A stretch of 43,904 nucleotides of DNA from Thermoplasmata archaeon (GTDB taxonomy: Archaea; Thermoplasmatota; Thermoplasmata; Lutacidiplasmatales; UBA184). This document shows positions 10,872 to 29,675 of this stretch, piece by piece. Every line of letters starts with the position of its first letter. Positions within the stretch are counted from its first letter, which is position 1. The stretch spans positions 1 to 43,904 of the forward strand of contig JASIBA010000027.1 in assembly GCA_030041735.1 (NCBI GenBank), read 5' to 3'. A program made the position numbers and the translations under genes. A model generated the notes under the pieces. That model saw only the letters and a program-made list of their open reading frames with translations. It was not told the origin of the DNA and ran no database searches.

Positions 10872-11831
10872 TCACGGCGGCTCGCCGACGCGCGTGCCCG
10901 CGCGCCCGGCGAGCCCGCGGGCCAGGGAGGGGATGTCGGTGATCACGAGGTACCGGCCGCCGGCCGCGAGAAACTCCAGCCCGGCCGTCACCTTCGGCCC
11001 CATGCTCCCCTCGGCGAACTCGCCCGCGCGCCGGTACCGGCGCAGCTCCGCCGCGTCGACGCGGCCCAGCCAGCGCTGGCGCGGCGTGCCGTACCCCACG
11101 GCCGCTCCCGGAACGTCGGTCACGATCGCGAGGGTGGCCGCCCCGATCTGCGCCGCGACCACGGCGGCCGCTCGGTCCTTGTCGATGACGGCCTCCACGC
11201 CCTCGTAGCGCCCGCCCCCACCCCGCACCACCGGGATCCCCCCTCCCCCGGTGACGACGAACACACAGCTCCGCCCCAGCCGTCCGTCGAGCGCGGCCCG
11301 GACCGCGTCGCCCTCGAGCCACCGCCGGGGCCGGGGGGACGGGACGACCCGCCGCCATCCTCCCCGCGCCGCGTCCTCGCGGAGGGTCCATCCGGCCGTC
11401 CGACGCAGGCGAGCGGCCTCCGCGGCCGAGTAGAACCGGCCGACCGGCTTCGTTGGGTGGCGGAACGCCGGGTCCCGCCGCGCGACCTCCGTGCGGCTCA
11501 CGATCGGGACGACGACGCGCGGGACCCGCGCGGTCCGGAGTGCCGCGCTCAGCTCCTGGGCGATCAGGTAGCCGATCTGGCCCTCCGACTCGGCGTCGAG
11601 CACGTGCATCGGCGGGGGCGGCACCTCCCGCGCCCCCAGCTCCGCCTCGCGGAGGAGGTCCCCGACCTGCGGACCGTTCCCGTGCGTGACGACGAGCTCG
11701 TGGCCCCGCGCGACGATCGCGGCGAGGACGGGGGCGGTCCGGCGCATCTGGCGGGTCGCGTCCGCCCAGGTCCCCGCGTCGTGGGCGCGCTGGATCGCGT
11801 TGCCGCCCAGCGCGACCAGGACGCGCGCCAC
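10872..11831 (-). CDS. arcC: Carbamate kinase
   Basis: 'VLVALGGNAI...VVTHGNGPQVG' and other family-typical blocks, about 319 aa, sitting in an arcA-arcB-arcC context. Confidence 0.9.
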   Translation of the reverse strand: MARVLVALGGNAIQRAHDAGTWADATRQMRRTAPVLAAIVARGHELVVTHGNGPQVGDLLREAELGAREVPPPPMHVLDAESEGQIGYLIAQELSAALRTARVPRVVVPIVSRTEVARRDPAFRHPTKPVGRFYSAAEAARLRRTAGWTLREDAARGGWRRVVPSPRPRRWLEGDAVRAALDGRLGRSCVFVVTGGGGIPVVRGGGGRYEGVEAVIDKDRAAAVVAAQIGAATLAIVTDVPGAAVGYGTPRQRWLGRVDAAELRRYRRAGEFAEGSMGPKVTAGLEFLAAGGRYLVITDIPSLARGLAGRAGTRVGEPP

Positions 11832-11855
11832 CGGATCCGTTCTCCCCCGGGGGCG

Positions 11856-12818
11856 TCAGGGCGCGCGCGGCGGGATCAGCAGCTCGAGGATCGCTTTCTG
11901 GGCGTGGAGACGGTTCTCGGCCTGGTCCCAGATCGCCTGCCGGGTCCCGTCGAGGACCGCGTCGGTTATCTCGAGGCCGCGGTGGGCGGGAAGGTCGTGC
12001 ATCGCGAAGGCGCCGGGCCGGCCGAGGTCGAGGAGCGCGTCGTCGACGGTGAACCCCTGGAAGTCGTGGGTCCTCTTCGCAGCCTCGGCCTCCTCGCCCA
12101 TCGACACCCAGACATCCGTGTAGATCGCATCCGACCCGCGAGCCGCCTGCTTCGGATCGCCCACGATCTCGCTGGTCGCGCCGCTCGCGCGCGTGAACGT
12201 CGCGACCCGGGCGAGGAAGTCGGCGTCCGGACGGTAACCGGCTGGGATCGCCGCCGCGAAGTCGATCCCCAGGATCGCGCTCCCGAGCATCAGCGAGCGG
12301 AGCACGTTGTTCCCGTCCCCGATGAACGCGAGCCGATGGCCCCGGAACTGGCCGGCCCAGCGCTCGCGGAGCGTGAGGAAGTCGGCCGCCGCCTGGCAGG
12401 GATGTTCCCGGTCGTCCAGGGCGTTGATCACCGGGATCGACGCCCACCGCGCGAGCTCCTCCTCGTTCTGCCAACGGAACGCCCGGTAGACCAGCGCGTC
12501 GTAGTAGCGCGACAGCACGCGGGCGGTGTCCGCGATCGTCTCCCCCCGGCCCAGCTGCATCTCGGACGACGAAAGGTAGACCGGGTGCCCGCCGAGGTCC
12601 TCGATCCCGACCTCGAAGGAGCTCCGGGTCCGAGTCGACGGCTTCTCGAAGATCATCGCGACGTCGCGATCCTTCAGCGGGCGGGGGAACTGCCCGGCGC
12701 GCCGCAGCCCCTTCAGCTCCTCGGCCCGCGCGAGGAGGCGCGGAAGGTCGGGAGCCAGGTCGGCGATGGAGAGCAGGTCGCGGTGGGGGGGGTACGCGGG
12801 GGGAGCGGCGGACGCCAT
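11856..12818 (-). CDS. arcB: Ornithine carbamoyltransferase (catabolic by context)
   Basis: 'STRTRSSFE', 'HPCQAAADFLT' and 'DVWVSMGEE' motifs. The usual HCLP motif reads 'HDLPAHRG'. Confidence 0.9.
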   Translation of the reverse strand: MASAAPPAYPPHRDLLSIADLAPDLPRLLARAEELKGLRRAGQFPRPLKDRDVAMIFEKPSTRTRSSFEVGIEDLGGHPVYLSSSEMQLGRGETIADTARVLSRYYDALVYRAFRWQNEEELARWASIPVINALDDREHPCQAAADFLTLRERWAGQFRGHRLAFIGDGNNVLRSLMLGSAILGIDFAAAIPAGYRPDADFLARVATFTRASGATSEIVGDPKQAARGSDAIYTDVWVSMGEEAEAAKRTHDFQGFTVDDALLDLGRPGAFAMHDLPAHRGLEITDAVLDGTRQAIWDQAENRLHAQKAILELLIPPRAP

Positions 12819-12828
12819 CGAACGGTCC

Positions 12829-14133
12829 TCAGCGCCCTGCCCGCTCGATGACGCACGTCATGCAGTGGGCCCCGCCGTAGCCGCCCGTGATCTCGCGCAG
12901 GTTGAGCGGCACCACGTCGATCCCGCGGTCCCGGAGATCGGCCGTGTGCGGGAAGTACCCCCGGCCCTCGCGGAGCTCCTCGCGCTCCTTCCGGACGAGA
13001 GCGAGCAGGGCCCGGTACCGGTGCGGGTCCGCGCGCGCCGCCGTCGCGAGGCCGGCGAGGACCCGGTCGATCTCCTGCTCCACCTCCACCGCGAGGATGC
13101 GGTGGTCCCGGAGGCACAGGAAGTTCGAGGCGTAGCTCATCTGCTCCAGCGTCGAGAGGGGCAGCACCTCAAACCTCTTTTCGGCCAGGAAGTCGAGGAG
13201 CGTCCGTGCGCCCGGCACCCGACGCAGGGGCCCCCCGCCGGTCCGCCGGTACACGTCCACGCGGGCCACGCGCAGCAGGGCCTCGCAGCCGACCACGAGC
13301 CGTTCGCCCGGGACGTTGAGGTACGTGTCGAGGTGCATGTCGATCATCGGATCCGGGTCGTCCCCCGGGATCGCCGGATGCGCGGGCTGGTGGACGACGC
13401 CGACCTCGTCGACCCCGAGCGGTGCCGCGAGCACCTGGCGGACCCCGCTCGCGTTGGTCCGGTCCCCGGTGCCGAGGAGCGCGAACTCGCCGAGCGGCAT
13501 GAAATCGCCGCCCTCGAACGTGCCCGGGCTGCGGACCTCCCCGGCGATCCGAGCGCCCCAGGCCCGGAGGAGGCTGCCGGTCAGGGCGGGCTCCTGGGCG
13601 CGTTGCGGCTTCGACATCCGGCCCAGGACGAAGCCCCCGGGCGTCAGCGCCTGCTGGTCCCGCATGAAGTACAGGTTCGCGAGCGGCGTGTCGAGCACGA
13701 CCTTCGGGAGGATCACGCGCGCGCCGGCGTGCCGCTCGAGACGGACCGAGGGTCGGAGGAGCAGGATGTTGAACAGGGTCTCCGAGTCGAAGCGGTCGAG
13801 GTTGCGCTTCAGCGCGGCTCGCGACCGCTCGACCATGACCTTCGGGCCCGAGTACTGGATCGTCGCGAGGGCGAAGCGGCGCACGCGCTCGACGAGCGCG
13901 GGGTCGCGCGCGGCGACCTCGACCCCGAGCCGCTTCAGGCGCCGGACGGTGATCCCCTCTTCCTCGAGGGCGTGCTCGAGCTCGGCGTGCTCGTGGACGG
14001 CCTCGTCGATGCTGAAGGCGCGCTCGTAGAGGAAGGAGTACGGCTCGGTGAGGCCGAAGAACATCTCGATGCCGGGACGATGGATCAGCACCTCCCGCAG
14101 CCGGTCCCACTCCGCGTGCGCCCGATTCCGCAT
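12829..14133 (-). CDS. arcA: Arginine deiminase
   Basis: N-terminal 'LREVLIHRPGIE', 'GGDFMPLG', and C-terminal 'GGAHCMTCVIER' containing the catalytic-Cys motif. An SD-like GAGGA sits in the 10-nt gap before arcB. Confidence 0.85.
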   Translation of the reverse strand: MRNRAHAEWDRLREVLIHRPGIEMFFGLTEPYSFLYERAFSIDEAVHEHAELEHALEEEGITVRRLKRLGVEVAARDPALVERVRRFALATIQYSGPKVMVERSRAALKRNLDRFDSETLFNILLLRPSVRLERHAGARVILPKVVLDTPLANLYFMRDQQALTPGGFVLGRMSKPQRAQEPALTGSLLRAWGARIAGEVRSPGTFEGGDFMPLGEFALLGTGDRTNASGVRQVLAAPLGVDEVGVVHQPAHPAIPGDDPDPMIDMHLDTYLNVPGERLVVGCEALLRVARVDVYRRTGGGPLRRVPGARTLLDFLAEKRFEVLPLSTLEQMSYASNFLCLRDHRILAVEVEQEIDRVLAGLATAARADPHRYRALLALVRKEREELREGRGYFPHTADLRDRGIDVVPLNLREITGGYGGAHCMTCVIERAGR

Positions 14134-14155
14134 CGCTCCCCTCCGGCCGACGGCG

Positions 14156-15994
14156 TCACTCCGCCGCGGGCACCGCCGGGGGCGGCTCGGCGGCCGGTCC
14201 CGGGTGGGCCGTCGACGCCCCGAGGAAGGTCCGCAGCGCGGAACGGTAGCCCCAGACGAACATCAGCAGGCCGAAGACCGTGAGGGCCACCAGGTCCCAC
14301 GGCAGGTTCAGGATCCCCATCGGCTGCAGGGTGATCGGGTACGTGGGCGGCGTGAGGAAGTTCTCGTACACGAAGAACGGGTCGCCGATGTACGAGATGA
14401 TCCCGATCCCGGCGATGTAGGTCACGATCCACAGGATCCCTTTCGATTCCGCGATCGCGCTCCGGCGGGCCAGGAACGTCAGAAAGTACGCGGGCAGCCC
14501 GACGAACAGGAGGACCGTTCCCAGCAGGGGCATCGCCGCGACGCCCAGCAGCGGGCCGCCGGGCGGCACCACGTAGATCAGGAGCAGCGACGCGACCACG
14601 AGGACGGTCACGATGCTCGCGACCGTGATCGCGCTCTTCAGGGTGCGGAGGGCGGGCGCCGTGAACAGGAAGTAGAGCGGCACCCCGATCAGCATCAGGA
14701 ACACCCCGACGAGGGTCCACGGCCAGGACGCCCAGTAGATCAGCACGGTCGCGAACACGAACGCGATCGGGGTCAGCAGCCACGCGCCGGGCAGCCGGTA
14801 CGGGCGCTCGGCGTGCGGGTCCGTGCGGCGGAGGACCAGCAGCGCGAGGGACGCGGCCCCGTACGGCAGGAGCGTGGTGATCGAGGCGACCAGCGCCACC
14901 TCGGGGAAGCTCGGCAGCGCGATGAGCACGACCCCGGTGAGCACGCTCGCGAAGATCAGCGCCACCGCCGGCGTGCCGAACTTCGGATGGATCCGCGCCA
15001 TGGACTTGAAGAAGAGATTGTCCTTCGCCATCGCGTACGGCATCCGGCCCTGCAGCAGGACCCAGTCGCCGCCGGCGCCGAGGGTCGACAGGATCGCGCC
15101 CACGACCACGATCGTTCCGAGCAGCGCGAGGCCCCAGCCGTCCGCGATGTTGTTGAGGAGCAGCGAGCCGGTGCCGCCCCAGTCGCCCGGGGCGACCCCC
15201 ACCGCGAACCAGCGGATGCCGCCGAGGAACGAGACCGCCACGAGCGCGTAGATCGCCGTCACGATCCCGACGCTGAGGATCGTCGCGCGGGGCAGGGTCC
15301 GCTTGGGGTCCCGCACCTCCTCCGCCGGGATCGAGGCCGCCTCGAACCCCGTGAACGCGAAGAAGCCGAGGCTCATCGCGAACATCACGCCCGTCCAGCC
15401 GAACGGGGAGAACCCGAACATCGTGAAGTTCCCCACCCGAAGGAACAGCAGCCCGATCAGGCCGAAGAGGAGGAGCGGGATCACCTTCGAGAAGGTCGTG
15501 ACGATGGCGAACGCCGAGCCCCACTTGATCCCCGCGATGTTCAGCAGCGTATAGGCCACGAGGAAGGCGAGCGCGATCAGGACCCCGGCGAGGGTCAGCG
15601 TGAGCACGCCCGTGCTGTTGACGAAGGTCAGACCCCCGACGTACGTGCCGAGGTACTCGATGAACACGTCGATGATCGCGGCCGTCCCGATGAACGCGTA
15701 GAGGAAGTAGCCCCAGCCGATCAGGAATCCTCCGAAGTTCCCGAGGGCGCGCCGCGGCAGCGAGTACGGGCCGCCGGTGATCGGGTAGGCCGCGGACAGC
15801 TCCGCGTACGGCAGGGCGAGCAGGATCACGACGATCCCGAGCAGCACGAGGGCGACGATCGCCGCCGGCCCGGCGGTCGAGCCCATCGTCGCGGCGAGTG
15901 CGAAGATCCCCGATCCGATGATCCCGCCCACCGTGATGGAGGTGAGGCCGAGCATCCCGACTTCCCGCTTGAGCTTCGGCTGATCCGCTGGCAT
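14156..15994 (-). CDS. APC-family amino acid permease with extra C-terminal TM helices; candidate arginine/ornithine antiporter by context
   Basis: 'LGLTSITVGGIIGSGIFAL' APC signature and more than 12 TM helices. It is the first gene of the arc operon. Its substrate is inferred only from the neighbourhood. Confidence 0.8.
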   Translation of the reverse strand: MPADQPKLKREVGMLGLTSITVGGIIGSGIFALAATMGSTAGPAAIVALVLLGIVVILLALPYAELSAAYPITGGPYSLPRRALGNFGGFLIGWGYFLYAFIGTAAIIDVFIEYLGTYVGGLTFVNSTGVLTLTLAGVLIALAFLVAYTLLNIAGIKWGSAFAIVTTFSKVIPLLLFGLIGLLFLRVGNFTMFGFSPFGWTGVMFAMSLGFFAFTGFEAASIPAEEVRDPKRTLPRATILSVGIVTAIYALVAVSFLGGIRWFAVGVAPGDWGGTGSLLLNNIADGWGLALLGTIVVVGAILSTLGAGGDWVLLQGRMPYAMAKDNLFFKSMARIHPKFGTPAVALIFASVLTGVVLIALPSFPEVALVASITTLLPYGAASLALLVLRRTDPHAERPYRLPGAWLLTPIAFVFATVLIYWASWPWTLVGVFLMLIGVPLYFLFTAPALRTLKSAITVASIVTVLVVASLLLIYVVPPGGPLLGVAAMPLLGTVLLFVGLPAYFLTFLARRSAIAESKGILWIVTYIAGIGIISYIGDPFFVYENFLTPPTYPITLQPMGILNLPWDLVALTVFGLLMFVWGYRSALRTFLGASTAHPGPAAEPPPAVPAAE

Positions 15995-16040: not shown

Positions 16041-16056
16041 GTCAAGCCGAGTTGAC
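16041..16056 (-). promoter_or_regulatory. Palindromic operator/UAS GTCAActcggcTTGAC upstream of the arc operon
   Basis: Read on the minus strand: GCGTCAACTCGGCTTGACGC, then 6 nt, then CCCAAGTAC (16034-16026), with the ATG 46 nt after the motif. Four other promoters share this architecture. Confidence 0.55.
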
Positions 16057-16948: not shown

Positions 16949-17056
16949 AAACGCGTTCGGCCTCGTCCGCGCGTTGCGCGCCCACCTCGGGCGAGGCGAG
17001 GGAAATCTGCGCCTCCCCGTGGGTTCGTCGCGGGTCCCGGACCTCGCGGGGCTGCC

Positions 17057-17072
17057 GTCAAGTCGACTTCAC
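17057..17072 (+). promoter_or_regulatory. Palindromic operator/UAS GTCAAgtcgacTTCAC upstream of the racemase gene
   Basis: Followed by 6 nt, then CCTAAGTAC (17079-17087). The ATG at 17119 lies exactly 46 nt after the motif. Confidence 0.5.
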
Positions 17073-17973: not shown

Positions 17974-18903
17974 ATGCGGAAGAGCACCGTCCTCGCGATC
18001 GTCCTGGCCGGAGTCCTCGCGGCGTCGGCGACCGCCTACGTGGCCTCGGTCGCGATCGCCACGCATGGGGGCGACGACACCTCGCCGCCGGTGGTGCCGG
18101 TGGCCCAGCTCCCTCACATCGGGCAACCGATCTCGGGGGCCACGGCGCTCGGCACCTCGGAGGCGACCGCGGTCGCCTGCCCTGAGCCGACCAGCGAATG
18201 CTCTTCGTCGTTCAACTGGGGCGGCTACATCGTGACGGCCGCCGCGGGCTCGGTCAGCGAGGTCTCCGGTAGCTGGAAGATCCCCGCCGTGACGGGCGCC
18301 GGCGGCACTTCGTGCCCGGACGCGCAGAAGGAGTGGCTGGCGAACGCGGTCTGGGTCGGGATCGACGGGTTCAACGACGGGACCGTGGAGCAGACCGGCA
18401 CGGAATCCGAGTGCTTCTACGGGCACGTCTACTACTACGCTTGGTACGAGTTCTACCCCGGGGCTCCCAAGACGGCTTCGTTCGCCGTCGCCGCGGGGGA
18501 CTCCATCTCGGCCTCGGTTACCTACACGGGGGTCACGCTGGCCGGCGTGCTGAAGTTCCAGACCACGCTGACCGACCTGACGACCGGGAACACGCTCACC
18601 AGCCCGAAGACCGGCGTGAGCGGAGCCGATCGGGACAGCGCCGAATGGATCAGCGAGTCGCCGTACTACGATGGGATCCTCGGGCTCACGCCGGTCTCGA
18701 CCGTGAAGTTCACCGGGGCCTCGGCCTCCATCGGCGGGGTCACCGGATCGATCGGGAGCTGGGGCACGAACGTGTACTGGGCGGTCCTGGTGGACTACTA
18801 CTTCCCCGACGATCCGGTCCTGAAGTACGTCAAGGATCTGCCGTCCGCCCTCAACAAGGCCGGCAACAGCTTCTCCTTCGCATGGAAGGGCTCCGGCCCG
18901 TAG
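17974..18903 (+). CDS. Peptidase family G1 (eqolisin / glutamic peptidase, Peptidase_A4) homolog, membrane-anchored or secreted
   Basis: N-terminal hydrophobic 'VLAIVLAGVLAASATAYVASVAI'. Also 'NWGGY', 'WVGIDGFNDGTVEQTG' (candidate catalytic Gln) and 'SAEWISE' (candidate catalytic Glu). Confidence 0.8.
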   Translation: MRKSTVLAIVLAGVLAASATAYVASVAIATHGGDDTSPPVVPVAQLPHIGQPISGATALGTSEATAVACPEPTSECSSSFNWGGYIVTAAAGSVSEVSGSWKIPAVTGAGGTSCPDAQKEWLANAVWVGIDGFNDGTVEQTGTESECFYGHVYYYAWYEFYPGAPKTASFAVAAGDSISASVTYTGVTLAGVLKFQTTLTDLTTGNTLTSPKTGVSGADRDSAEWISESPYYDGILGLTPVSTVKFTGASASIGGVTGSIGSWGTNVYWAVLVDYYFPDDPVLKYVKDLPSALNKAGNSFSFAWKGSGP

Positions 18904-22417: not shown

Positions 22418-22433
22418 GTCAAGGTCACTTGAC
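22418..22433 (+). promoter_or_regulatory. Palindromic operator/UAS GTCAAggtcacTTGAC upstream of the GNAT gene
   Basis: Perfect 5+5 palindrome. After 6 nt comes the AT-rich TTCATTTGC (22440-22448). The ATG at 22480 lies exactly 46 nt after the motif. Confidence 0.5.
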
Positions 22434-22479: not shown

Positions 22480-23118
22480 ATGAGGCCGGAGCCGGGCGGG
22501 GAACCGACGGGGTCCCGCGATCCCGTGGAGGTGGACGCGCTGCGCGACGGGACCCGCGTACGGATCCGCCCGCTCCAGACCGGCGATCGACCAGGAGTCG
22601 AGGAGTTCGCGCGGCGGCTCTCGCTGGAAGCGGTCGAGCTCCGGTACTTCGTCCCGCTCCCGCCCGCGCGCGTCGTCGAGGAGCTGCTCGGCTCGGACCG
22701 GGTCACCGGCCGATACGCGGCGCTCATGGAGACCGTCGGGCCGGGGCCCGTCCGGATCGTGGGGCACGCGGAGTACGTTCGACCGAAGGACGGACGCGCG
22801 GTGGCCGAGGCGGCCTTCGTGATCGCGGACTCGTTCCAGGGTCGGGGTGCCGCCACGCTCCTCCTCTGGCACCTGGCGGCCGTGGCCCGGTCCGAGGGCA
22901 TCCGGACCCTGGAAACGGTCGCGCTCCGGACGAACGCGGCCATGCTGCAGGTCTGTTTCGACGCCGGGTACCCCTTCTCGGTCGCGCTCGAGGAGGACAC
23001 GGTGCGGGTCTCGCTGGACATCTCGGGGGAACGACAGACCGCGCTCTCCTCCCTCGCCGACCGCCCGGAGGCGTTCCTCGAGCGGCGGGCTCGGCCCTCC
23101 ACTGGCCCGGCGGCCTGA
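22480..23118 (+). CDS. GNAT-family N-acetyltransferase (Pat-like acetyltransferase domain)
   Basis: 'IRPLQTGD...', 'FVIADSFQGRGAATLLLWHLAAVARSEGIRTL'. The ATG at 22480 is preferred over the TTG at 22429, which lies inside the palindrome. Confidence 0.75.
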   Translation: MRPEPGGEPTGSRDPVEVDALRDGTRVRIRPLQTGDRPGVEEFARRLSLEAVELRYFVPLPPARVVEELLGSDRVTGRYAALMETVGPGPVRIVGHAEYVRPKDGRAVAEAAFVIADSFQGRGAATLLLWHLAAVARSEGIRTLETVALRTNAAMLQVCFDAGYPFSVALEEDTVRVSLDISGERQTALSSLADRPEAFLERRARPSTGPAA

Positions 23119-23170: not shown

Positions 23171-23509
23171 CTACTCGACGAGCGATCGGACGAGCTGCAC
23201 AAAGGGAGCGGGGACGAGGGGGAGCCCGACCGGATGGACGCCACCCCCCGCGACGGCCAGCGGATCGCGCGAGCCCACGACCACGAGCTCGGGCCCGGCG
23301 AGCTCGCCGCGCAGGTAGGACCGGAGGGTCGGACAGTGTCCGCTGTTGGCCGCGGCCACGATGACGCGGACGCCCCGGAGCCCCGCGCGTTGGGCCGCGT
23401 CGACCTCCGGTGCGAACCGGGTGGGGACCCCGTAGGCGTCGAGCAGGTCCACGATCGCCCGCCCAAGGCTCGGGGTCTCGCCCACGACGAGGACCCGGGC
23501 CCCGTTCAT
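23171..23509 (-). CDS. Small receiver-like (pseudo-receiver) protein lacking the phospho-acceptor Asp
   Basis: The alternating beta/alpha pattern 'RVLVVGETPSLGRAIVDLL...VRVIVAAANSGHCPTL...ELVVVGSRD...' resembles CheY-like REC domains. The acidic pocket (GE instead of DD) and the Asp (Ala) are replaced. High GC3. Fold assignment is inference. Confidence 0.55.
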   Translation of the reverse strand: MNGARVLVVGETPSLGRAIVDLLDAYGVPTRFAPEVDAAQRAGLRGVRVIVAAANSGHCPTLRSYLRGELAGPELVVVGSRDPLAVAGGGVHPVGLPLVPAPFVQLVRSLVE

Positions 23510-23546
23510 ACCGGCCGCCGTCGCGCCCCGCCGATTTAGCCCGCCC

Positions 23547-23562
23547 GTGAACTTTACTTGAC
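23547..23562. promoter_or_regulatory. Palindromic site GTGAActttacTTGAC (minus strand: GTCAAgtaaagTTCAC) in the divergent pseudo-receiver/kinase intergenic region
   Basis: In the minus orientation it is followed by 7 nt, then CTAAATC (23539-23533), with the ATG at 23509 37 nt after the motif. The AT-rich spacer CTTTAC could serve as the TATA element for the plus-strand kinase gene (GTG 23589). Confidence 0.5.
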
Positions 23563-23588
23563 CCGCGCGCCGTAGCCGGCCCGCCGCC

Positions 23589-25061
23589 GTGCCCGAGACC
23601 GAACCGGACCCGGAACGCTCGCTCGCGCTCCTCGAGAGCGCCCCCGTAGGGATCGCGCTGCTGCGGGCCCCGGGCGTGGTCCGGTGGGCGAACGCGGCCT
23701 ACTTCGAGGTCACGGGCCGCTCCCGCGAGCTGCTCGGCAAGGACATCCACGACATCCTGGAGGCGGACGGGAGCTGGTCGGCTCCGATCCGCAGCGCGGT
23801 CGACGCGGCCCTCACGGCGGGCGCCGCCGCGACGTTCCGGAACGTGCGCGCCGTCTACCGGCCCCAGGCCGCGCCGGTCTACCTCGACGTCGACATCCGG
23901 CGCCTTCCCGGGCCGGACCGCCCGCCCGCGGAGGCGCTGCTGATGGTCCGCGACGTGACCGACCGGGTCGCCGAACGCGAGCGGGCCGACGTGTTCCAGC
24001 TGGCCTTCCGGAGCTCGACGAACGCGATGCAGCTGACCGACGCGCGCGGGATCATGGTCGACGTGAACCCGGCCTTCGAGCGGATCTACGGGTACTCTCG
24101 GGCCGAGTGCGTGGGCCGGAAGCCGAACCTCGTCCGGAGCCGGTACACGCCGGTCGAGCTGTACGAGCGGATGTGGGCCGACCTGAAGGACCCGAGCCGG
24201 GGCGCGTGGTCCGGCGAGCTGCTCAACCGCGACCGGTACGGTCGCGAGCACCCGGTTCTCCTCTCGATCACGGCGATCCGCGACGCCCGCGACGAGATCA
24301 CGCATTACCTCGGCGTGGCCGTCGACCGGACCGAGCAACGCGAGTGGGAGATGGCGTCCGCGCACATGGAGCGGCTGGCCTCCATGGGCCAGCTGGCGGC
24401 CGGGATCGCGCACGAGATCAACACGCCGATGGCGAACGTGATGCTCATCGCGGAGAGCCTCCGCCGACGGTCGTCCGACCCGGAGATCCGCCACCGGCTG
24501 GAGACGCTCCAGGGCCAGGTCGAGGTCGCGGCCCGCATCGTCCGCAGTCTGCTCGACTTCGCGCGCCGCGACGAGCCGACCGTGGCCGACGTGGACCTCG
24601 CGGAGATCGCGCGGGCGTCGGTGGGATTCCTCCGCGGCAAGCAGTCGATGGACGTCGAGGTCCTCGAGGACCTGCCCGACGGAGGCCTCCCGGTGCGGGG
24701 CGATCGGGGCCAGCTCATCCAGGTCGTGACGAACCTGCTCAACAACGCCTACGACGCGGAGCATGGGGAGGGACGCATCGTCGTACGCGGCCATCGGCGG
24801 GGCTCGTGGGCGGAGCTCGAGGTCCGCGACAACGGGCCCGGCATCCCGGAGGAAGCGCTCACCCATCTGTTCGAGCCGTTCTTCACGACCAAACCCGAGG
24901 GCGAGGGCACCGGGCTCGGCCTCGCCATCTGCCACGGGATCGTCCAATCGCACCACGGTTCGATCCGCGGTCAGAACCTCCCCGAAGGAGGGGCCTCGTT
25001 CGTGGTGGTGCTCCCGCTCCGGGAGGGCCGGGCCGTCTCGGCGGGCGGAACCCCCGCCTGA
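23589..25061 (+). CDS. Cytoplasmic PAS-domain sensor histidine kinase
   Basis: Two PAS-like regions ('[12 protein letters not shown]', '[38 protein letters not shown]'). H-box '[12 protein letters not shown]', N-box 'NLLNNAYDA', G-boxes 'DNGPGIP' and 'GTGLGLAI'. Confidence 0.9.
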
Positions 25062-25086
25062 AGCCGGGACCGAGATCCCCCGGCCC

Positions 25087-25102
25087 GTCAATTCGGCTTC
25101 AT
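25087..25102 (+). promoter_or_regulatory. Degenerate copy of the palindromic site (GTCAAttcggcTTCAT) upstream of the DUF981-like gene
   Basis: Followed by 6 nt, then CCCAAGTAG (25109-25117), nearly identical to the arc promoter's CCCAAGTAC. An ATG at 25150 lies 47 nt after the motif. Confidence 0.45.
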
Positions 25103-25226
25103 GGAGCGCCCAAGTAGCGCGGGGCGCGATCCGTCGGCCGGTGAGACCCATGACGGAGCCGAGAACCTGCCCGAAGACCGAGCGATCGATCGCGGACCGA
25201 GGGACCGAGGACGGGAGGGAAGGACG

Positions 25227-26030
25227 ATGAGCTTCACCACGTTCGTCGACGACCTCGCGCTCGTGCAGGTGCTGCTCGCGCTCGTGGCGAGCGTGCTCGC
25301 CTACGCCGGCGTGCGCGTCTGGTGGGCCCTCCGGACCAACGATCCCGAGGGACTGCGGGGCGTGCTCCGAGGCGCCGCGGTGCCGATGGCGGGCCTCGGC
25401 CTCGTGGCGCTCGTGCTCGCCCTGTGGGGCGAGATGACCTGGCCGTTCCTCTCGTCCGACGGGCTGGGCGGCTACAACATCTTCTTCTTCGACCCGATCG
25501 TGCTGCTCGGCATCGTCCTGGTCTCGTACGCGGCCACGGTCGTCCTCTCGGCGAAGCTGCAGTACGTGGGTCTGATCGCGTTCGTCGCCGGAGCGGTGAC
25601 GATGTTCTACGGATACACGGGATACACCGCGAGCCCCGCGTTCACGAAGGACCCGCTGGACACCCTGCTGCTCTACCTCGCCTTCGGCGCGGCGGGGCTC
25701 TTCGCGTTGCCGGCCTCGATCGTGGTCGACTACTTCCTCGGGGCTTCCGACGCGGGTCGCGTGCCCTTCGCCTTCGCGATCGGTCGGAGCCACCGCCGCG
25801 GAACCGGGCTGGGGACCCGGGCCGTACAGCCCGTCGTGCCGGCGGTCGACGTGGCGTCCAACGCTGCAGAGGACGGGACCGGATCCACCACCTTCCGCGT
25901 CCCGGCCTGGGCCCAGGTGCTGGTGCTCCTCTTCCCGGTGTTCGTCGCGCTCGCCGGGATCGCGGCGTTCTGGTACTTCGGCGTCACGCTGCCGGGCCAC
26001 CTGGGCAGCGGCCCCGCCGGCGCGCCCTGA
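25227..26030 (+). CDS. DUF981-like integral membrane protein with a C-terminal extension
   Basis: Strong SD 'GGGAGGGAAGG' 3-13 nt upstream of the ATG. Multiple TM helices and a 'GGYNIFFFDP' block recalled from DUF981 proteins. An extra C-terminal TM 'WAQVLVLLFPVFVALAGIAAFWYF'. Confidence 0.65.
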   Translation: MSFTTFVDDLALVQVLLALVASVLAYAGVRVWWALRTNDPEGLRGVLRGAAVPMAGLGLVALVLALWGEMTWPFLSSDGLGGYNIFFFDPIVLLGIVLVSYAATVVLSAKLQYVGLIAFVAGAVTMFYGYTGYTASPAFTKDPLDTLLLYLAFGAAGLFALPASIVVDYFLGASDAGRVPFAFAIGRSHRRGTGLGTRAVQPVVPAVDVASNAAEDGTGSTTFRVPAWAQVLVLLFPVFVALAGIAAFWYFGVTLPGHLGSGPAGAP

Positions 26031-26066
26031 ACGGTCGACCCGGCGCGCGGCGCAACCCCTTCCTCC

Positions 26067-26094
26067 GTCCCCGGGCCGGCGCGGGCCCGGGGAC
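26067..26094 (+). terminator. GC-rich perfect 11-bp hairpin (GTCCCCGGGCC-ggcgcg-GGCCCGGGGAC) after the DUF981-like gene, with a T-tract about 25 nt downstream
   Basis: Begins 37 nt after the stop at 26030. 'gattttcc' lies at about 26118-26125. It could be a transcript 3' end or stabiliser, but archaeal terminators are normally T-tracts, so the function is uncertain. Confidence 0.35.
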
Positions 26095-26134
26095 GCGCTC
26101 TCCCGCCCGCAAAGCTTGATTTTCCGGCACCTCG

Positions 26135-27229
26135 TTGCGGCCCCCCGTGCGCGTCCTCGTGGTCGACGACGACGCGGTGTTCCGGGAGGAGCTCGCCGAG
26201 CTCTTGCGGGACGAGCGCCACCAGGTCGAGGCGGCTCCCTCGGTCGGCAAGGCGCTGGAGTGGCTGGAACGCGAGGAAGCGGACGTCGTGCTCACCGACC
26301 TGCGCATGCCGAGGCACAGCGGCCTCGAGCTGCTGCGAGAGGTCCGCACCCGCTGGCCACGGACGCTGGTCGTCGTGATCACCGGCTTCGCCTCGGTCGA
26401 CACGGCCCTGGAGGCGATGAAGGCCGGCGCGTTCGATTACGTGCGCAAGCCGTTCCGGATCGAGGCGCTCCGCGCGACTCTCGAGCTCGCGGCCCAGCAG
26501 CGAGCGTTCGCGCCACCTCCGGCGGCCGAGCGGGACCCGTCCGCGGAGGCGCGGGCGCTCGCACGCCCCGGCGACGTCGAGGTCCTCTACCTGGCGAGCG
26601 ATCCTCCCCGGGCCACCGCGCACCTCCACTTCGCCGCCCTGGACCCGGGGGACCTCGCCGCGGCCGTGGATCGGGTGCGCGACTTCGTGGGAGAGCACGC
26701 GCGGGCGGCCGTCGTCCTCGCTGACGTGGGACCGGTCCTCGCCCGCCACCGACTGGGCGATGTCCTCGGCGCGCTCGATTCGATGCGGGCGCTGCTCGAG
26801 GGCCACGGTGCCCTCCGGGTGGGATTCGATCCCGCGCGGGTCGCTCCCGACGTCGCGACGGCCGTCGCCGGCGCGGTCGCCGCGGACGAGACGCAGAGTA
26901 CGATGGAAGCGCTGGCCAATCCCATCCGGCGCAAGGCGCTCGAGCGTGTCGCGCACGCCCCCGCCCCGTTCGGGGAGCTCATGGCGGCGGCCGGGCTCGA
27001 CGACTCGCCGAAGATGTCGTTCCATCTTCGCAAGCTGGTCGACGCCGGTCTGCTCGCGCACGAAGGGGAGGAGTATCGACTGACCTCGCGCGGCGGCGCG
27101 GTCCTGCGGCTCCTGACCGACGCCACGCTCCTTCCTCCGACCGGGGCGACCTCGAACCGGGCGTTCGCGCACGCGGAGCCGGCGGGGTCCGAGCCGGCCG
27201 GCCGGCCGAAGCCCCGACGCGACCCCTAG
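26135..27229 (+). CDS. Response regulator: REC / DUF835-like middle domain / ArsR-type winged HTH
   Basis: Canonical REC ('VLVVDDD', 'VVLTDLRMP', 'VVITG', 'DYVRKPF'). The middle 'AAVVLADVGPVLARHRLGDVLGALDSMRALLEGHGALRVGFDP' resembles the DUF835 core. The C-terminus 'LANPIRRKALERVAHAPAPFGELMAAAGLDDSPKMSFHLRKLVDAGLL' is wHTH. An alternative leaderless GTG at 26147 sits downstream of the AT-rich 'aaagcttgatttt'. Confidence 0.85.
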   Translation: MRPPVRVLVVDDDAVFREELAELLRDERHQVEAAPSVGKALEWLEREEADVVLTDLRMPRHSGLELLREVRTRWPRTLVVVITGFASVDTALEAMKAGAFDYVRKPFRIEALRATLELAAQQRAFAPPPAAERDPSAEARALARPGDVEVLYLASDPPRATAHLHFAALDPGDLAAAVDRVRDFVGEHARAAVVLADVGPVLARHRLGDVLGALDSMRALLEGHGALRVGFDPARVAPDVATAVAGAVAADETQSTMEALANPIRRKALERVAHAPAPFGELMAAAGLDDSPKMSFHLRKLVDAGLLAHEGEEYRLTSRGGAVLRLLTDATLLPPTGATSNRAFAHAEPAGSEPAGRPKPRRDP

Positions 27230-27348
27230 TGGCCCCATCGTGCGCCGGGCGAGCCGACCTCGCGCACGCGGGGGGACCCGGCCGGGCGACGGGGGGGCGA
27301 GTGGGGATCGGACCGGGGAGTCATACGCGCGCGGCGTGTCGGCGTGGC

Positions 27349-28116
27349 ATGCGGTCCTGGCCGAGTGTGCTCGCGATCGCCGTCGTGCTGCTCATGGTCG
27401 GTGCCGGAGGCCTGACGCTCCGGGCGGGGTCGGCGGTCGAGCGTGACGCCGCCGCCCCGATGATCGTGCCGGCCGGATCCGTCTGGAACAACGCCAGCAA
27501 CTGGGCCGGGTACGCCGCGATTCCCGGCTCGGGGACGGTCACGAAGGTCTCGGCGGCCTGGATCGAGCCCACGGTGTCCTGCACGGGGGCTACGACGTTC
27601 GCCGCGTTCTGGGTCGGGATCGATGGCGCCAGCACGCAGACCGTCGAGCAGACCGGGACGGCCGTCGAGTGTGTGGGAGGCGTCGCGTACTACTGGGCCT
27701 GGTGGGAGCTCTACCCCAGCCCGATGGAGGTCATCGATAAGATCACTGTGAGCCCGGGGGACCACTTCTCCGCCTCGGTGAGCTACACTCCGCCCCACAC
27801 CTTTTCGATGAAGATCAAGGACGTCACGACGGGGGTCGAGTCGGCGAAGGCCGGCACGCTCTCCTCCGCGAAGCGTGCGGACGCCGAGTGCATCGCCGAG
27901 CGGCCGGAGGTGGACAATACCCTCGCGGCGCTCGCCCCGTTCGGCGTGGTGAAGTTCTCGTCGTGCACGGCGACGGTGTCGGGCTCGAGCGGCGGGATCG
28001 GCTCGTTCGCTCCGCTCTGGCGCATCGACATGGTCTCGGGCAGCACCGTGCTGGCCGCGACCGGGACCCTCGGGAAGGAGACGTCGTTCAAGGTCACCTG
28101 GGAGAACAGCGGCTGA
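27349..28116 (+). CDS. Peptidase family G1 (glutamic peptidase) homolog, second paralog
   Basis: Signal/anchor 'WPSVLAIAVVLLMVGAGGL'. Also 'NWAGY', 'FWVGIDGASTQTVEQTG' and 'DAECIAERP'. Colinear with the 17974-18903 product. Confidence 0.8.
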   Translation: MRSWPSVLAIAVVLLMVGAGGLTLRAGSAVERDAAAPMIVPAGSVWNNASNWAGYAAIPGSGTVTKVSAAWIEPTVSCTGATTFAAFWVGIDGASTQTVEQTGTAVECVGGVAYYWAWWELYPSPMEVIDKITVSPGDHFSASVSYTPPHTFSMKIKDVTTGVESAKAGTLSSAKRADAECIAERPEVDNTLAALAPFGVVKFSSCTATVSGSSGGIGSFAPLWRIDMVSGSTVLAATGTLGKETSFKVTWENSG

Positions 28117-28187: not shown

Positions 28188-29675
28188 GTGGACGGCGTCG
28201 CGCGCGCGACCGAGCAGTTCCGCTTCCCGGAGACCCTGTCCCTCACGGCCGCCCGACTCCTGGCCGAGGCGTTCCGCGCCCACTACCTCGGAGTCCGGGT
28301 CCCACCGTCCGCACCCGGCGCGGTAGAGTCGTCGACCGATCCCACGACCGGGCGGACGGAGTTCCGATGGGTCCAGGACCCGACCCCGCCGATCCCCTGG
28401 GGACCGACGCTCGGGACCGGCCCGGTCACCGTCCACGTCACGATCGCGCCGGACCGACTGACCATCGAATTCGGGTCGGCCCGCCCGCTCGACACGAGCG
28501 CGCGGCAGGCTCTGGCGCGACTGGCCGACGAGGTGCAGGCCTTTTCGACCCGATATCTGAGGGTGGAACGGCTCTCCTCGGTCTATCTGGCGCTCCCCTG
28601 GGGGACCGGGGCCGCGGTCGGCGAGACCGTCGGGAGCCACGAGGTGGTCCGCCGCATCGTTTCGGGGAACTCCACGAACGTGTTCCTCCTGATCATCGTG
28701 ATCTCACTCCCGGCGGTGTTCTTCCTGGGCATCTACGCGTTCGTTCTGATGATCGGGCTGCAGGGCGCGGTGCTCGTGTTCATCGACCGCATCGCGGCCG
28801 CCTCGGGACCGGTGCGTCCATCCCCGGAACGCCCGCAGGTGCTGGTCGTCGGCGTGGCAGAAACCCCGGAGGGCGGCCGCGCGCTCCGGAAATCCGTCAA
28901 ACGCACGCTGCCAGCCCTCCGCCGGGAGCTGGGGCATCTCACGGCGGGATCGACGGCGCCCCCCTCGGGGGCCGACGTGACCGCAGTGTTCGCCCGTCTG
29001 GGCATCCCGTGCACCGAGGCCGACGTTCGGATCACGCTGCGGGACGTCTATGCCCCCGTCGCGCGTGTCGCCGCGCGCTTCGGACTTCCGGTCCCCCGCT
29101 TGGTCGTTTCGGACCAGCCGCTCTCGAACGCCGCGGCGACCGGCGTCTCTCCGGGTCACGCGACGGTCGTCGTGACGGCAGGCGCGATCGAGCAGCTGGA
29201 CGACGGGGAGCTGGCGGCCGTGATCGGGCACGAGTTCGGTCACCTGCGCGGTCGCGATCCGATCGTGCTGTTCGGGACCAACGCGGTGCTCTACCTCGGT
29301 GCCGTCTTCCTCTGGCTGCCGCTCTTCCTCGAGCTCGGCCTGTTCTACCTGCTCCTCGCATTCGCCCTCCTGTTCGCGGTGGGCAAGGTACTCGAGACTC
29401 GGGCCGATACGCTCAGCGCGCTCGTCCTCGGTGAGGGCGCGGATCTCGCGCGGGCCCTCGAGGCGAGCGAGTTTGACGAGGAGTACGTCGAGGGACGATC
29501 GTACGGCGCGCGCGTTCTCGGCTGGCTCTCGCTCGACTCGCACCCTCCGATCTACTTCCGCGTTCGGAGATTGTTCCGGATCTCGAGGGACGTCCGGACC
29601 GCCCGCCACCCCCTGTGGGCCTCGGTACGAGACTGCGCCTCGGGGTTCCTGCATGCGGTCGCCGGCGGGGCGTGA
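28188..29675 (+). CDS. M48-family (HtpX-like) zinc metallopeptidase with a long N-terminal domain
   Basis: 'AVIGHEFGHLRGRD' (HExxH) between TM helices, with downstream TMs 'LYLGAVFLWLPLFLELGLFYLLLAFALLFAV'. About 170 aa of soluble N-terminal region of unknown family. Confidence 0.8.
   Translation: MDGVARATEQFRFPETLSLTAARLLAEAFRAHYLGVRVPPSAPGAVESSTDPTTGRTEFRWVQDPTPPIPWGPTLGTGPVTVHVTIAPDRLTIEFGSARPLDTSARQALARLADEVQAFSTRYLRVERLSSVYLALPWGTGAAVGETVGSHEVVRRIVSGNSTNVFLLIIVISLPAVFFLGIYAFVLMIGLQGAVLVFIDRIAAASGPVRPSPERPQVLVVGVAETPEGGRALRKSVKRTLPALRRELGHLTAGSTAPPSGADVTAVFARLGIPCTEADVRITLRDVYAPVARVAARFGLPVPRLVVSDQPLSNAAATGVSPGHATVVVTAGAIEQLDDGELAAVIGHEFGHLRGRDPIVLFGTNAVLYLGAVFLWLPLFLELGLFYLLLAFALLFAVGKVLETRADTLSALVLGEGADLARALEASEFDEEYVEGRSYGARVLGWLSLDSHPPIYFRVRRLFRISRDVRTARHPLWASVRDCASGFLHAVAGGA

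Follow-up and report, generated by a model that had tools for sequence, protein, structure and literature searches.

A putative autoregulated two-component system with a REC-DUF835-winged-helix regulator and a conserved palindrome in uncultured Thermoplasmata

Four adjacent genes in a Thermoplasmata metagenome-assembled genome, encoding a small receiver-like protein, a histidine kinase, a DUF981 membrane protein, and a response regulator, raise the question of whether these components constitute one sensory unit, and which protein acts on the 16-bp palindrome GTCAA-N6-TTGAC (hereafter, the dyad) that recurs between them. The window, namely the whole stretch of 43,904 nucleotides analyzed here, contained all four genes, with contents close to those in an earlier note made from the sequence alone (Table 1). 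The regulator family was widespread in Thermoplasmata (588 confirmed stretches in genomes of species representatives), and two samples were compared: 15 "close" species with a regulator identity of at least 56% and 28 "more distant" loci with 46-55%. The (divergent) small gene, kinase, and regulator occurred together in all 15 close species, and the kinase preceded the regulator in the same orientation in 15/15 close and 25/28 more distant loci. This gene order, observed in the neighborhood comparison that the earlier note had proposed, is therefore conserved beyond the window, in contrast to an arrangement kept nowhere else. On the other hand, the four-gene sensory unit proposed there held for these three genes, but not for DUF981 (6/15). 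The best reading is that the cluster belongs to uncultured acid-soil/peat Thermoplasmata as a lineage-specific two-component system.

Table 1. Features of the window (positions in the whole stretch) and their main evidence.
Feature	Position	Strand	Remarks
Operon of amino-acid permease, arginine deiminase, ornithine carbamoyltransferase, and carbamate kinase	10872..15994	-	Pfam, NCBIfam
Putative operator copy (strongest), GTCAAGCCGAGTTGAC	16041..16056		24.9 bits; 47 nt upstream of permease gene
Putative operator copy before racemase gene, GTCAAGTCGACTTCAC	17057..17072		24.0 bits; 47 nt upstream
Asp/Glu-type amino-acid racemase	17119-17880	+	Pfam, NCBIfam
Peptidase A4 (acid peptidase), paired with racemase	17974-18903	+	Pfam, NCBIfam
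Putative operator copy before GNAT gene, GTCAAGGTCACTTGAC	22418..22433		19.2 bits; exact match
GNAT acetyltransferase, Pat-like catalytic domain	22480..23118	+	Pfam Acetyltransf_1; NCBIfam Pat GNAT region, E = 2e-16
Small receiver-like protein, 112 aa	23171..23509	-	First gene downstream of best-conserved operator copy
TATA-like box of small gene, CTAAATC	23533..23539	-	23 nt from ATG
Putative operator copy 1, GTGAACTTTACTTGAC	23547..23562		PWM 20.5 bits; 1 mismatch
PAS-PAS-HisKA-HATPase_c histidine kinase (soluble), 490 aa	23589..25061	+	Pfam, NCBIfam; AtoS/NtrB/FixL-like
Putative operator copy 2 (weak), GTCAATTCGGCTTCAT	25087..25102		PWM 15.2 bits; 2 mismatches, right half TTCAT
Conserved upstream ORF/leader, 26 codons	25150..25230	+	Stop codon overlaps DUF981 start codon
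DUF981 polytopic membrane protein, 267 aa	25227..26030	+	Pfam, E = 1e-25
Response regulator, REC-DUF835-winged helix	26135..27229	+	Public-record start, 26147

The kinase was found to contain two PAS domains followed by HisKA and HATPase_c, and no hydrophobic or transmembrane segment was detected in a hydropathy scan (maximum KD19 1.41), in agreement with the earlier description. Its best NCBIfam similarity was AtoS (E = 5e-66), and sequence matches in the PDB were LOV/FixL-type kinases. This cytoplasmic enzyme would sense an intracellular cue (redox, energy, or metabolite signals are typical for soluble PAS kinases), and would phosphorylate Asp55 of the regulator. The REC domain of the latter (residues 7-116; best NCBIfam similarities AtoC, NtrC, and FixJ) retained D11/D13, D55, T83, and K105. 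A DUF7347/HTH_20/ArsR-type winged helix, whose closest solved relatives among PDB matches were of the ArsR/SmtB type, occupied residues 255-325 (up to 329 in the wider delimitation), followed by a conserved disordered tail. Matches of the full regulator model in a PDB search were dominated by REC. The intervening segment (about residues 130-250) did not match Pfam DUF835 at E <= 1 in the window protein itself; however, 14 of 35 close family members did (best E = 1.6e-5), and the family aligned end to end with distant relatives above the Pfam DUF835 threshold (hhalign probability 100%, E = 6e-79). These sequence comparisons support a divergent DUF835 (inactivated KaiC-like) domain, as the earlier note had suggested together with REC and the ArsR-type winged helix, both found by Pfam.

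In its layout of REC, a P-loop-NTPase-like central domain, and HTH, the regulator resembles NtrC-type proteins (NtrB/NtrC, AtoS/AtoC, ZraS/ZraR), to which the similarities of kinase and REC also point. The central domain, however, is a truncated RecA/KaiC-like DUF835 without Walker A rather than a sigma-54 AAA+ module, the HTH is of the ArsR rather than the Fis type, and the full-length structural match was poor (TM about 0.3); to our knowledge, sigma-54 is absent from archaea. The earlier note also regarded the architecture as uncharacterized, and this was partly correct: full-text literature searches found no experimental characterization of DUF835 or DUF7347, but a 2018 census of archaeal two-component systems (Galperin et al.; PMC5847659) lists REC-DUF835 ("inactivated KaiC") for Methanomicrobia and Thermoplasmata. 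The listed proteins share the N-terminal receiver, the DUF835 middle domain, and (in Thermoplasmata) the taxon with the present family, although the table there gives no DNA-binding domain, function, operator, or partner genes (PMC5847659). In the window family, an ArsR-type winged helix (DUF7347) is invariably present at the C-terminus, and the DUF835 of the window protein is divergent enough to miss the Pfam model. Among archaeal regulators, FilR1 of Methanosaeta (wHTH-DUF1724-REC), LtrR of Methanococcoides (HTH-REC), and QarA of Haloferax (REC-HalX-GAF-BAT-HTH_10) similarly fuse a receiver to an HTH and are paired with a cytoplasmic PAS/GAF kinase, and the Qar system has an additional receiver-type protein (PMC5847659; PMC13464002). 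They differ in domain order and intervening domains, none having DUF835, and the parts of these sources consulted do not mention a palindromic operator abutting BRE/TATA (PMC5847659; PMC13464002).

The dyad was distributed non-randomly in the window. Although the number of matches at 2 mismatches (9 versus 6.3 expected) was not above chance, a PWM scan of the 44 kb yielded only five sites of at least 12 bits versus 0.66 in shuffles, all of them upstream of gene starts and with a shared layout: dyad (half-site centers 11 bp apart), 9 nt, and an A/T-rich box. This box was AAGTAC past the copies at 16041 (minus strand) and 17057, and AAGTAG (25112-25117) past copy 2. The likely ATG of the GNAT gene lies 47 nt past its copy. 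The short distance between the TATA-like box and the ATG of the small gene (TATAAT, GATAGT, or GATGAA at this position in orthologues) implies a leaderless or near-leaderless mRNA. The spacing common to every window copy places the dyad against the BRE/TATA region (about -40 to -60), the site from which TBP- or TFB-recruiting activators of archaea operate. The earlier note had placed two copies within the module, in front of the small gene and DUF981; both are imperfect, but both are real because their positions are conserved in orthologous loci.

A dyad with at least 8/10 matches was observed in 38/38 orthologous small-gene/kinase spacers versus 0.84 expected by chance, and was located 32-39 nt from the small-gene start codon in 37/39 spacers, beside a TATA-like box; in contrast to this fixed distance, that to the kinase start varied from 26 to 132 nt. 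The dyad symmetry was kept in a variant, GTAAA-N6-TTTAC (L026). At loci without a detectable small gene, the dyad was 43-58 nt upstream of the kinase in 11/20, and where the regulator was separated from the kinase (L029, L032, and L050), it was 41-71 nt upstream of the regulator, a region that otherwise mostly scored below 5 bits and thereby served as a control; the regulator gene itself seems to be served by a separate A/T-rich promoter that lacks a dyad. Weaker copies (14-24 bits) preceded DUF981 in 12/12 kinase-DUF981 spacers (11 orthologues and the window), 113-162 nt upstream in most and 202 nt in L015, the right half ending in T (TTGAT or TTCAT) in nine of the 12. Sites of at least 16 bits were also found upstream of GNAT homologues in 9/16 loci.

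Which factor would bind these sites, and with what sign? Since the palindrome follows the two-component genes through rearrangements, and orphan paralogues of the regulator with a different recognition helix (DDTS(K/L)IAFHLRKL versus DDSPK(M/L)SFHLRKL in the family) have no dyad nearby, putative binding by the regulator accounts best for the comparative data, consistent with the earlier view of the winged-helix protein as the natural candidate. This link is one of co-localization, and the strongest window copies (16041 and 17057) lie outside the signaling cluster, before metabolic genes; a factor encoded elsewhere, for example, one responsive to arginine or amino acids, might thus control both arginine catabolism and the two-component genes, while the regulator binds other sites. 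Such a factor is unlikely, however, because several different rearrangements leave the dyad together with the two-component genes, it is missing around the orphan paralogues, autoregulation through a site in the own promoter region is a common pattern of two-component regulators, and a non-systematic look at the loci examined noted no further DNA-binding gene beside the cluster. It appears similarly improbable that dyad binding by the regulator serves repression or a dual function, phosphorylation relieving or imposing repression rather than leading to recruitment of the basal machinery. ArsR/SmtB proteins (NmtR, SrnR, and ArsR), whose HTH_20/HTH_5 profiles and PDB chains match the winged helix, are classically repressors and, as would the regulator, bind an inverted repeat as a dimer; furthermore, the kinase begins as close as 26-29 nt to the dyad in the window and in L007, L037, and L077, where the site would overlap a kinase promoter; for the window and L007 (27-28 nt), repression of this promoter is likewise conceivable. 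At the five window sites and in orthologues, however, the dyad lies upstream of the TATA-like box, covering neither this box nor the start site of the gene from which it keeps a fixed distance. This operator position suggests activation, and the input, in contrast to that of ArsR/SmtB repressors, would come through a receiver domain.

The roles of the two remaining proteins can be weighed similarly. The small protein had no Pfam match in a profile search, nor had any of its 86 homologues, and its profile comparison with the regulator REC gave no support (probability 0.9%). Its AlphaFold2 model was confident (pLDDT 93.9) and adopted a (beta-alpha)5 fold, for which the top PDB matches were receiver domains, including the pseudo- or atypical receivers CikA, FrzS, and HP1043 (TM 0.65-0.71, with Foldseek E of only ~1e-3). 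The acceptor Asp after beta3 (VIVAA-AN) and Lys after beta5 (G-LPL) were missing, and its conserved residues map to the face that holds the active site in true receivers. "Pseudo-receiver", the term of the earlier note, is thus a structural reading: the fold and the missing Asp were found, but sequence-level similarity to REC was not. This lack of similarity, together with SIS, B12-binding, and Rossmann-like domains among the fold matches, would also suit a small accessory protein of the arginine/amino-acid pathway, flavodoxin- or Rossmann-like and either ligand-binding or enzymatic, whose gene is simply the first of a regulated operon. In L017 and L003, the small gene is followed on the same strand by permease-arginine deiminase-carbamate kinase or carbamate kinase genes, and the N-terminus VLVVGETPSLGRAI resembles an SDR dinucleotide-binding motif (faint NCBIfam SDR match, E = 0.0016). 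We consider an accessory of this kind doubtful, though less so than the two alternatives above, because the highest TM-scores are all to receivers (other folds, 0.5-0.63), and the gene is strictly paired with the kinase (15/15), not with metabolic genes (6/15). The earlier note further assigned DUF981, with its about six hydrophobic segments (hydropathy scan) in agreement with the predicted membrane protein, to the missing membrane input of one obligatory four-gene unit. Indeed, the window and 11 related loci carry the gene between those for kinase and regulator, and the kinase itself has no membrane segment; however, the kinase-regulator pair occurs without DUF981 in 9/15 close loci and in all 28 more distant loci that keep the pair, and unrelated genes (for a DoxX-looking membrane protein and a KaiC-like ATPase) occupy its slot in L017 and L025. 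DUF981 is therefore an optional cluster member. Its upstream region also carries features expected for a target, namely a TATA-like box, a leader ORF, and an operator copy of its own. An ORF of 22-29 codons was present in 11/11 aligned kinase-DUF981 spacers (the window and 10 orthologues), starting from an aligned ATG (TTG in L005) and preceded in most by a GTGAG-like motif. A membrane sensor feeding the soluble kinase, already disfavored, is very unlikely; DUF981 looks like a regulated target rather than a required sensor.

The preferred reading, which we regard as reasonably probable, is a two-component system that controls its own expression and, through its regulator, activates a small regulon of arginine/amino-acid catabolism. 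The regulator would bind GTCAA-N6-TTGAC as a dimer and activate from the dyad abutting BRE/TATA. The divergent pseudo-receiver gene would be the most constant target, and its product, incapable of being phosphorylated, would most likely provide feedback as a partner of either the kinase or the KaiC-like domain of the regulator. This is reminiscent of the cyanobacterial clock: the model matches the CikA pseudo-receiver (2j48, TM 0.68), the acceptor Asp is missing in CikA/KaiA N-terminal domains as well, and the small gene adjoins the gene for a protein with a KaiC-like domain. The small protein, however, is stand-alone, with no detectable sequence similarity to CikA/KaiA, and what resembles KaiC here is an inactivated fragment that forms part of a response regulator. 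Any interaction is speculative. Further predicted targets are the Pat-like GNAT acetyltransferase, located near the system in 9/15 close loci, DUF981 or another small membrane protein, read through the leader ORF, and, in this genome, the permease-arginine deiminase-OTC-carbamate kinase operon and the racemase/acid-peptidase pair. Arginine deiminase pathway genes were within 7 kb of the system in 6/15 close loci (adjacent in L003, L010, L017, L077, L078, and L079), and in L093 operator copies precede both the racemase and the permease-arginine deiminase operon; this pathway is not a universal target, because two of four extra arginine-deiminase loci (L090 and L091) had no dyad. While REC-DUF835 proteins were already catalogued in 2018, no earlier description of the operator GTCAA-N6-TTGAC and its regulon was found in the literature searched. 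The output of the system would be the catabolism of arginine and amino acids, a process that provides ammonia and ATP and has been linked to acid tolerance in this lineage.

All four genes of the signalling module described in the earlier note were present in the window (72% G+C), for which contig JASIBU010000055.1 (Thermoplasmata MAG GCA_030044985.1, JOPF series) was a match. A scan for the regulator family, using one genome per species (GTDB), gave 588 confirmed stretches, from which 80 loci were kept: 76 were titled Thermoplasmata, and the others Thermoplasmatota (L082), "bacterium" (L054), and Hadarchaeota (L084 and L085). The window proteins were mapped on these loci by tblastn, and 60 loci had enough upstream DNA for comparison. 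When regulator identity was at least 56% (15 loci), the kinase was found upstream on the same strand in 15, the small gene divergent from the kinase in 15, DUF981 between kinase and regulator in 6, an acetyltransferase (GNAT) gene nearby in 9, and an arginine-pathway gene within 7 kb in 6. The corresponding numbers were 25, 14, 0, 2, and 1 at 46-55% identity (28 loci), and 5, 0, 0, 0, and 1 below 46% (17 loci, mostly orphan paralogues). The conserved core consists of the small gene, the kinase, and the regulator, while DUF981 is optional; the proposal of a four-gene unit was therefore retained for three genes, which occurred together in all of the close loci.

Predicted features of the window (operator copies with weight-matrix score, downstream gene, and A/T-rich hexamer)
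Feature	Position	Strand	Description
Permease-ADI-OTC-carbamate kinase operon	10872-15994	-	contiguous genes, APC-family permease first
Operator copy	16041		24.9 bits; permease of arginine deiminase operon; AAGTAC
194-aa ORF	16123-16707	-	no family match
A/T-rich island	16905-16965		gattataatgggttaaggacgaaaactatatagaaac
Operator copy	17057		24.0 bits; Asp/Glu-type racemase, then peptidase A4; AAGTAC
Peptidase A4	17974-18903		behind operator-bearing racemase gene
Operator copy	22418		19.2 bits; GNAT; ATTTGC
Small protein, 112 aa	23171-23509	-	no Pfam match
Operator copy	23547		20.5 bits; small gene; AAATCG
Histidine kinase	23589-25061	+	Pfam: two PAS, HisKA, HATPase_c
Operator copy	25087		15.2 bits; DUF981; AAGTAG
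Upstream ORF, 26 codons	25150-25230		MTEPRTCPKTERSIADRGTEDGREGR; between DUF981 operator copy and DUF981
DUF981 membrane protein	25227-26030	+	Pfam PF06168, E = 1e-25
G+C-rich inverted repeat	~26053-26085		ahead of regulator A/T-rich box
A/T-rich box	26105-26125		aaagcttgattttcc; ~25-35 nt upstream of regulator start
Response regulator	26135 or 26147 to 27229	+	REC, DUF835-like, ArsR-type winged helix
Regulator tail	27122-27229		residues 330-364
Peptidase A4	27229-28116		directly downstream of regulator
Peptidase M48	28188-29675		after the preceding A4 gene

The histidine kinase (HK) was described as a protein with two PAS domains and no TM segment, and this was borne out by Pfam (HisKA, E = 2e-14; HATPase_c, E = 1e-28; plus the two PAS domains) and by a search for hydrophobic segments, in which none was seen. 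Solved kinases in PDB matched by sequence with E values down to 4e-35, and the closest types were AtoS, NtrB, and FixL. The membrane protein scored 91.2 bits with DUF981 (Pfam gathering cut-off, 29) and contained approximately six hydrophobic segments, indicating a polytopic protein. Its suggested role as the missing membrane input is disfavoured since the gene lies between kinase and regulator in only 6/15 close loci; as an obligatory sensor it was rejected, being optional and replaced in two related loci from other genomes. In one of these (L025, 4620-6209), the slot is occupied by a KaiC-like ATPase of 529 aa in which the Walker A motif (GPPGAGKTS) is intact, and in the other (L017, 5923-6420) by a 165-aa DoxX-looking membrane protein, the gene of which has a TTGAT-type operator copy upstream, as DUF981 does. 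The TGA stop of the short ORF preceding DUF981 overlaps the DUF981 ATG, and all 11 aligned HK-DUF981 spacers (window and 10 orthologues) contained an ORF of 22-29 codons with an aligned ATG start, preceded in most by a GTGAG-like motif. Since the position and length of this ORF were kept, but not its peptide sequence, a regulatory leader or translational coupling is suggested.

Two copies of the palindrome GTCAA-N6-TTGAC had been placed inside the module. Exact copies in the window were limited to 16041 and 22418, neither of which is inside it, and the module-internal copies carried 1 and 2 mismatches. The palindrome count in the window at 2 mismatches was not above chance, and the case for both internal copies rests on conservation in orthologues, by which their positions were confirmed in spite of the imperfect sequence. 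At least 8 of the 10 positions matched in 38/38 distinct orthologous small-gene/kinase spacers and at least 9 in 31, against 0.84 and 0.05, respectively, predicted from shuffles of the same spacers. The site was located 32-39 nt from the small-gene start codon in 37/39 spacers, adjoined by a TATA-like box (TATAAT, GATAGT, or GATGAA), and its distance to the kinase start was variable (26 to 132 nt). A weight matrix derived from these orthologous sites, applied to the 44-kb window at a threshold of 12 bits, gave five sites, versus 0.66 in shuffles. All five had a common layout: the dyad, 9 nt, an A/T-rich hexamer, 23-37 nt, and a start codon, this last interval ending at the leader ORF rather than the gene start codon for the site at 25087. 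All 12 HK-DUF981 spacers contained a site of 14-24 bits, mostly 113-162 nt upstream (202 nt in L015), and in nine of these sites the right half ended in T (TTGAT or TTCAT).

As a control, the 200-nt region ahead of the regulator gene mostly scored less than 5 bits; the exceptions were four loci (L029, L032, L040, and L050) with a dyad 40-71 nt upstream of a regulator that was not directly behind the kinase. Among loci without a detectable small gene, the dyad was found 43-58 nt upstream of the kinase in 11/20, and one locus (L026) had the symmetric variant GTAAA-N6-TTTAC. No recognisable palindrome was found upstream in the Hadarchaeota relatives (L084 and L085), and Rfam and tRNA scans of the spacers gave nothing relevant. 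In three more distant loci (L044, L047, and L051), GTTAGTTnnGnTTTAC was located at a fixed distance of ~68 nt upstream of the kinase, and may represent an operator variant that diverged in a sister clade. The regulator gene probably has a promoter of its own, independent of the operator; besides the A/T-rich box of the window, a similar box was present 14-26 nt before the regulator in L003, L009, L018, L077, and L079, with the palindrome in none of them.

The receiver domain of the regulator (PF00072) was detected with a Pfam E value of 4e-30; D11, D13, D55, T83, and K105 were invariant across 35 family members, and the REC part of the AlphaFold2 model (mean pLDDT 82) superposed on solved receivers with an rmsd of 1.1-2 Å. 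A winged helix of the DUF7347/HTH_20/ArsR type makes up the C-terminus, with scores of 41 bits for DUF7347, 28.8 for HTH_20 (cut-off 27), and 21.4 for HTH_5 (cut-off 22); NmtR, SrnR, and ArsR in PDB matched at E = 1e-3 to 1e-2, and residues 263-316 were modelled as three helices plus a β-hairpin. The region of ~120 residues between these domains had no match at E ≤ 1 to the DUF835 model (PF05763, gathering score 33.1 bits), and the model matched 14/35 close relatives, all under the gathering threshold (best E = 1.6e-5). A full-library phmmer search using residues 125-364 reached distant proteins of 350-390 aa, and in seven of the ten scanned, DUF835 exceeded the gathering score (40-66 versus 33.1 bits), as REC-DUF835-DUF7347 in six and HisKA_7TM-DUF835-wHTH in one. 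In a profile-profile comparison, the window family aligned with the distant members without a break through all three domains (probability 100%, E = 6e-79). Because this alignment is continuous with above-threshold DUF835 proteins, homology bears out the "DUF835-like" assignment even though the strict Pfam threshold was missed, and the middle domain is, on this basis, a divergent DUF835.

Residues 135-248 of the model formed an α/β domain (pLDDT ~90); matches in a PDB fold search with the whole model were dominated by REC, and a PDB sequence search with the DUF835 and winged-helix part returned ArsR-type matches only, none for DUF835. A family-wide conserved motif, ATFLPPxGxxGNLAFP, is present in the regulator tail, in a segment predicted to be disordered (pLDDT below 50), and could act as a short linear motif on which a partner docks. 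The HisKA_7TM-type library protein (P0238, 488 aa) had no receiver; its N-terminal part was a HisKA_7TM sensor region, joined to DUF835 and the winged helix also seen in the regulator. Given this pairing, DUF835 plus winged helix appears to behave as a portable output module.

The small protein had been described as receiver-like without the acceptor Asp. Only a faint SDR match, regarded as a lead, was obtained in NCBIfam, none of its 86 homologues contained a Pfam domain, and those with an organism name were all assigned to Thermoplasmata. The predicted structure (pLDDT 93.9) was a (βα)5 flavodoxin-like fold, for which the best PDB folds were 3lte, DivK, HP1043, the CikA pseudo-receiver, FrzS, PhoB, and CheY; the receiver matches had TM values of 0.65-0.71 and E values of ~1e-3, none ≤ 0.001. 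β3 ends in A53-A54-N55, leaving no acceptor Asp, and β5 is followed by L96-P97-L98, leaving no conserved Lys; A53/A54 and L96-P97-L98 were invariant or nearly so among 41 homologues. Furthermore, E11, P13, S14, A53, and G79 were invariant, and R81, D82, and P83 nearly so, the conserved residues being located in loops matching the active-site face of a receiver. On the other hand, REC homology was unsupported in a comparison of the small-protein and regulator families by hhalign (probability 0.9%). The predicted fold and the lack of Asp and Lys thus agreed with the description, but REC sequence similarity did not; the protein, if a receiver at all, may reasonably be called a pseudo-receiver, and this label is structural only, rather than demonstrated family membership, because the receiver-like model is accompanied by no REC profile signal.

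The operon behind the operator copy at 16041 is predicted to encode the arginine deiminase pathway (arcA, arcB, and arcC) with a transporter. Ornithine carbamoyltransferase (OTC) scored 376 bits (cut-off 306) and carbamate kinase 277 bits (266 for one subfamily model); arginine deiminase (ADI) was matched by Pfam (E = 2e-36) but scored below the NCBIfam equivalog cut-offs, and its substrate is therefore presumptive. The GNAT gene product has a catalytic domain resembling that of mycobacterial Pat, and in 9/16 loci GNAT homologues were preceded by a site scoring 16 bits or more. Several other species had arginine-pathway genes next to the system: behind the small gene and co-oriented with it in L017 and L003, and between kinase and regulator in L077. 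Among four further arginine-deiminase loci fetched, L093 had one dyad 55 nt from the racemase start and another 43 nt from the permease-ADI operon start, L092 had one dyad, and L090 and L091 had none; since the palindrome was absent from the last two, the arginine pathway was dropped as a universal target and is regarded as a frequent one. In a genome survey of the related order Lutacidiplasmatales (PMC9287336), arcA and A4 peptidases are put forward as traits of acid adaptation, and the words "two-component", "histidine kinase", and "response regulator" do not occur in the text. Both peptidase A4 genes in the window are of the acid-active, scytalidoglutamic type. The A/T-rich island is inside a 411-nt divergent spacer between the 194-aa ORF and the racemase gene, within DNA of 72% G+C; Rfam and tRNA scans of it gave nothing.

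Taken together with gene order, these sequences make the following circuit most likely. The cytoplasmic PAS kinase would phosphorylate the regulator, as suggested by the adjacency of their genes (15/15 loci at ≥ 56% identity and 25/28 at 46-55%), and a regulator dimer would bind the dyad abutting the BRE/TATA region, with GTCAAGCCGAGTTGAC as its candidate DNA target. The binding of another factor to the dyad is a main rival to this assignment, which we infer from the conserved inverted repeat beside the genes; the orphan paralogues had no dyad in their vicinity, and their recognition helix starts with DDTS(K/L)IAFHLRKL versus DDSPK(M/L)SFHLRKL in the window family. The regulator would activate the small pseudo-receiver gene, GNAT, and DUF981, and, in the window genome, arginine/amino-acid catabolic genes as well. 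The sign of this regulation is the second point at which a main rival, a repressor rather than an activator, has to be weighed; the common layout, with the dyad ahead of the hexamer at all five sites, is what the proposed activation draws on.

Feedback from the pseudo-receiver probably acts on the kinase or the KaiC-like domain. The main rival here is a metabolic accessory: the lower-TM fold matches of the small protein included SIS, B12-binding, and Rossmann-like domains, and receivers were the better matches. A more specific version of the proposed feedback appears unlikely to us, namely that regulator and pseudo-receiver are a Kai-like partner-switching pair, in which the regulator-induced pseudo-receiver docks on the inactivated KaiC-like domain or the kinase and closes a feedback loop. 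If true, this loop would set the timing or amplitude of a response in acid stress and arginine catabolism. DUF835 plus winged helix would then serve in archaea as a reusable output module, driven by a receiver or by a 7TM sensor (as in P0238), and, among archaeal response regulators, this one would be the first for which an operator, a regulon, and a dedicated pseudo-receiver partner are defined.

DNA-binding response regulators are rare among archaea, and, to our knowledge, experiments have been done on very few archaeal two-component systems. The window system resembles NtrB/NtrC as a kinase-regulator pair, but where NtrC has the AAA+ domain and Fis, the window regulator has an inactivated RecA/KaiC-like module and an ArsR-type winged helix, respectively. 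FilR1, LtrR, and QarA, archaeal DNA-binding regulators that have been characterised, are built differently from the window regulator. REC-DUF835, taken as inactivated KaiC-like, has an entry for Methanomicrobia and Thermoplasmata in a census of two-component systems of archaea published in 2018 (PMC5847659), so that the architecture is partly catalogued; a full-text literature search for DUF835 and DUF7347 returned this census alone and no functional work. The literature searched yielded no mention of the operator, the promoter geometry, the pseudo-receiver partner, or the predicted regulon.

The locus would represent a complete, testable circuit for abundant, uncultured archaea of acid soil and peat, comprising a kinase, a regulator whose middle domain is of an unusual, KaiC-like kind, a 16-bp operator in a precise position, and a few target promoters. 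Its predicted targets include the arginine deiminase pathway, put forward in earlier genome surveys of the lineage as an acid-tolerance trait with no known regulation. Three domains of unknown function (DUF835, DUF7347, and DUF981) and a new family of pseudo-receiver-like proteins that stand alone would also gain a first functional context from the circuit; its value lies in being an archaeal circuit that is complete and open to testing, and not in a new principle.
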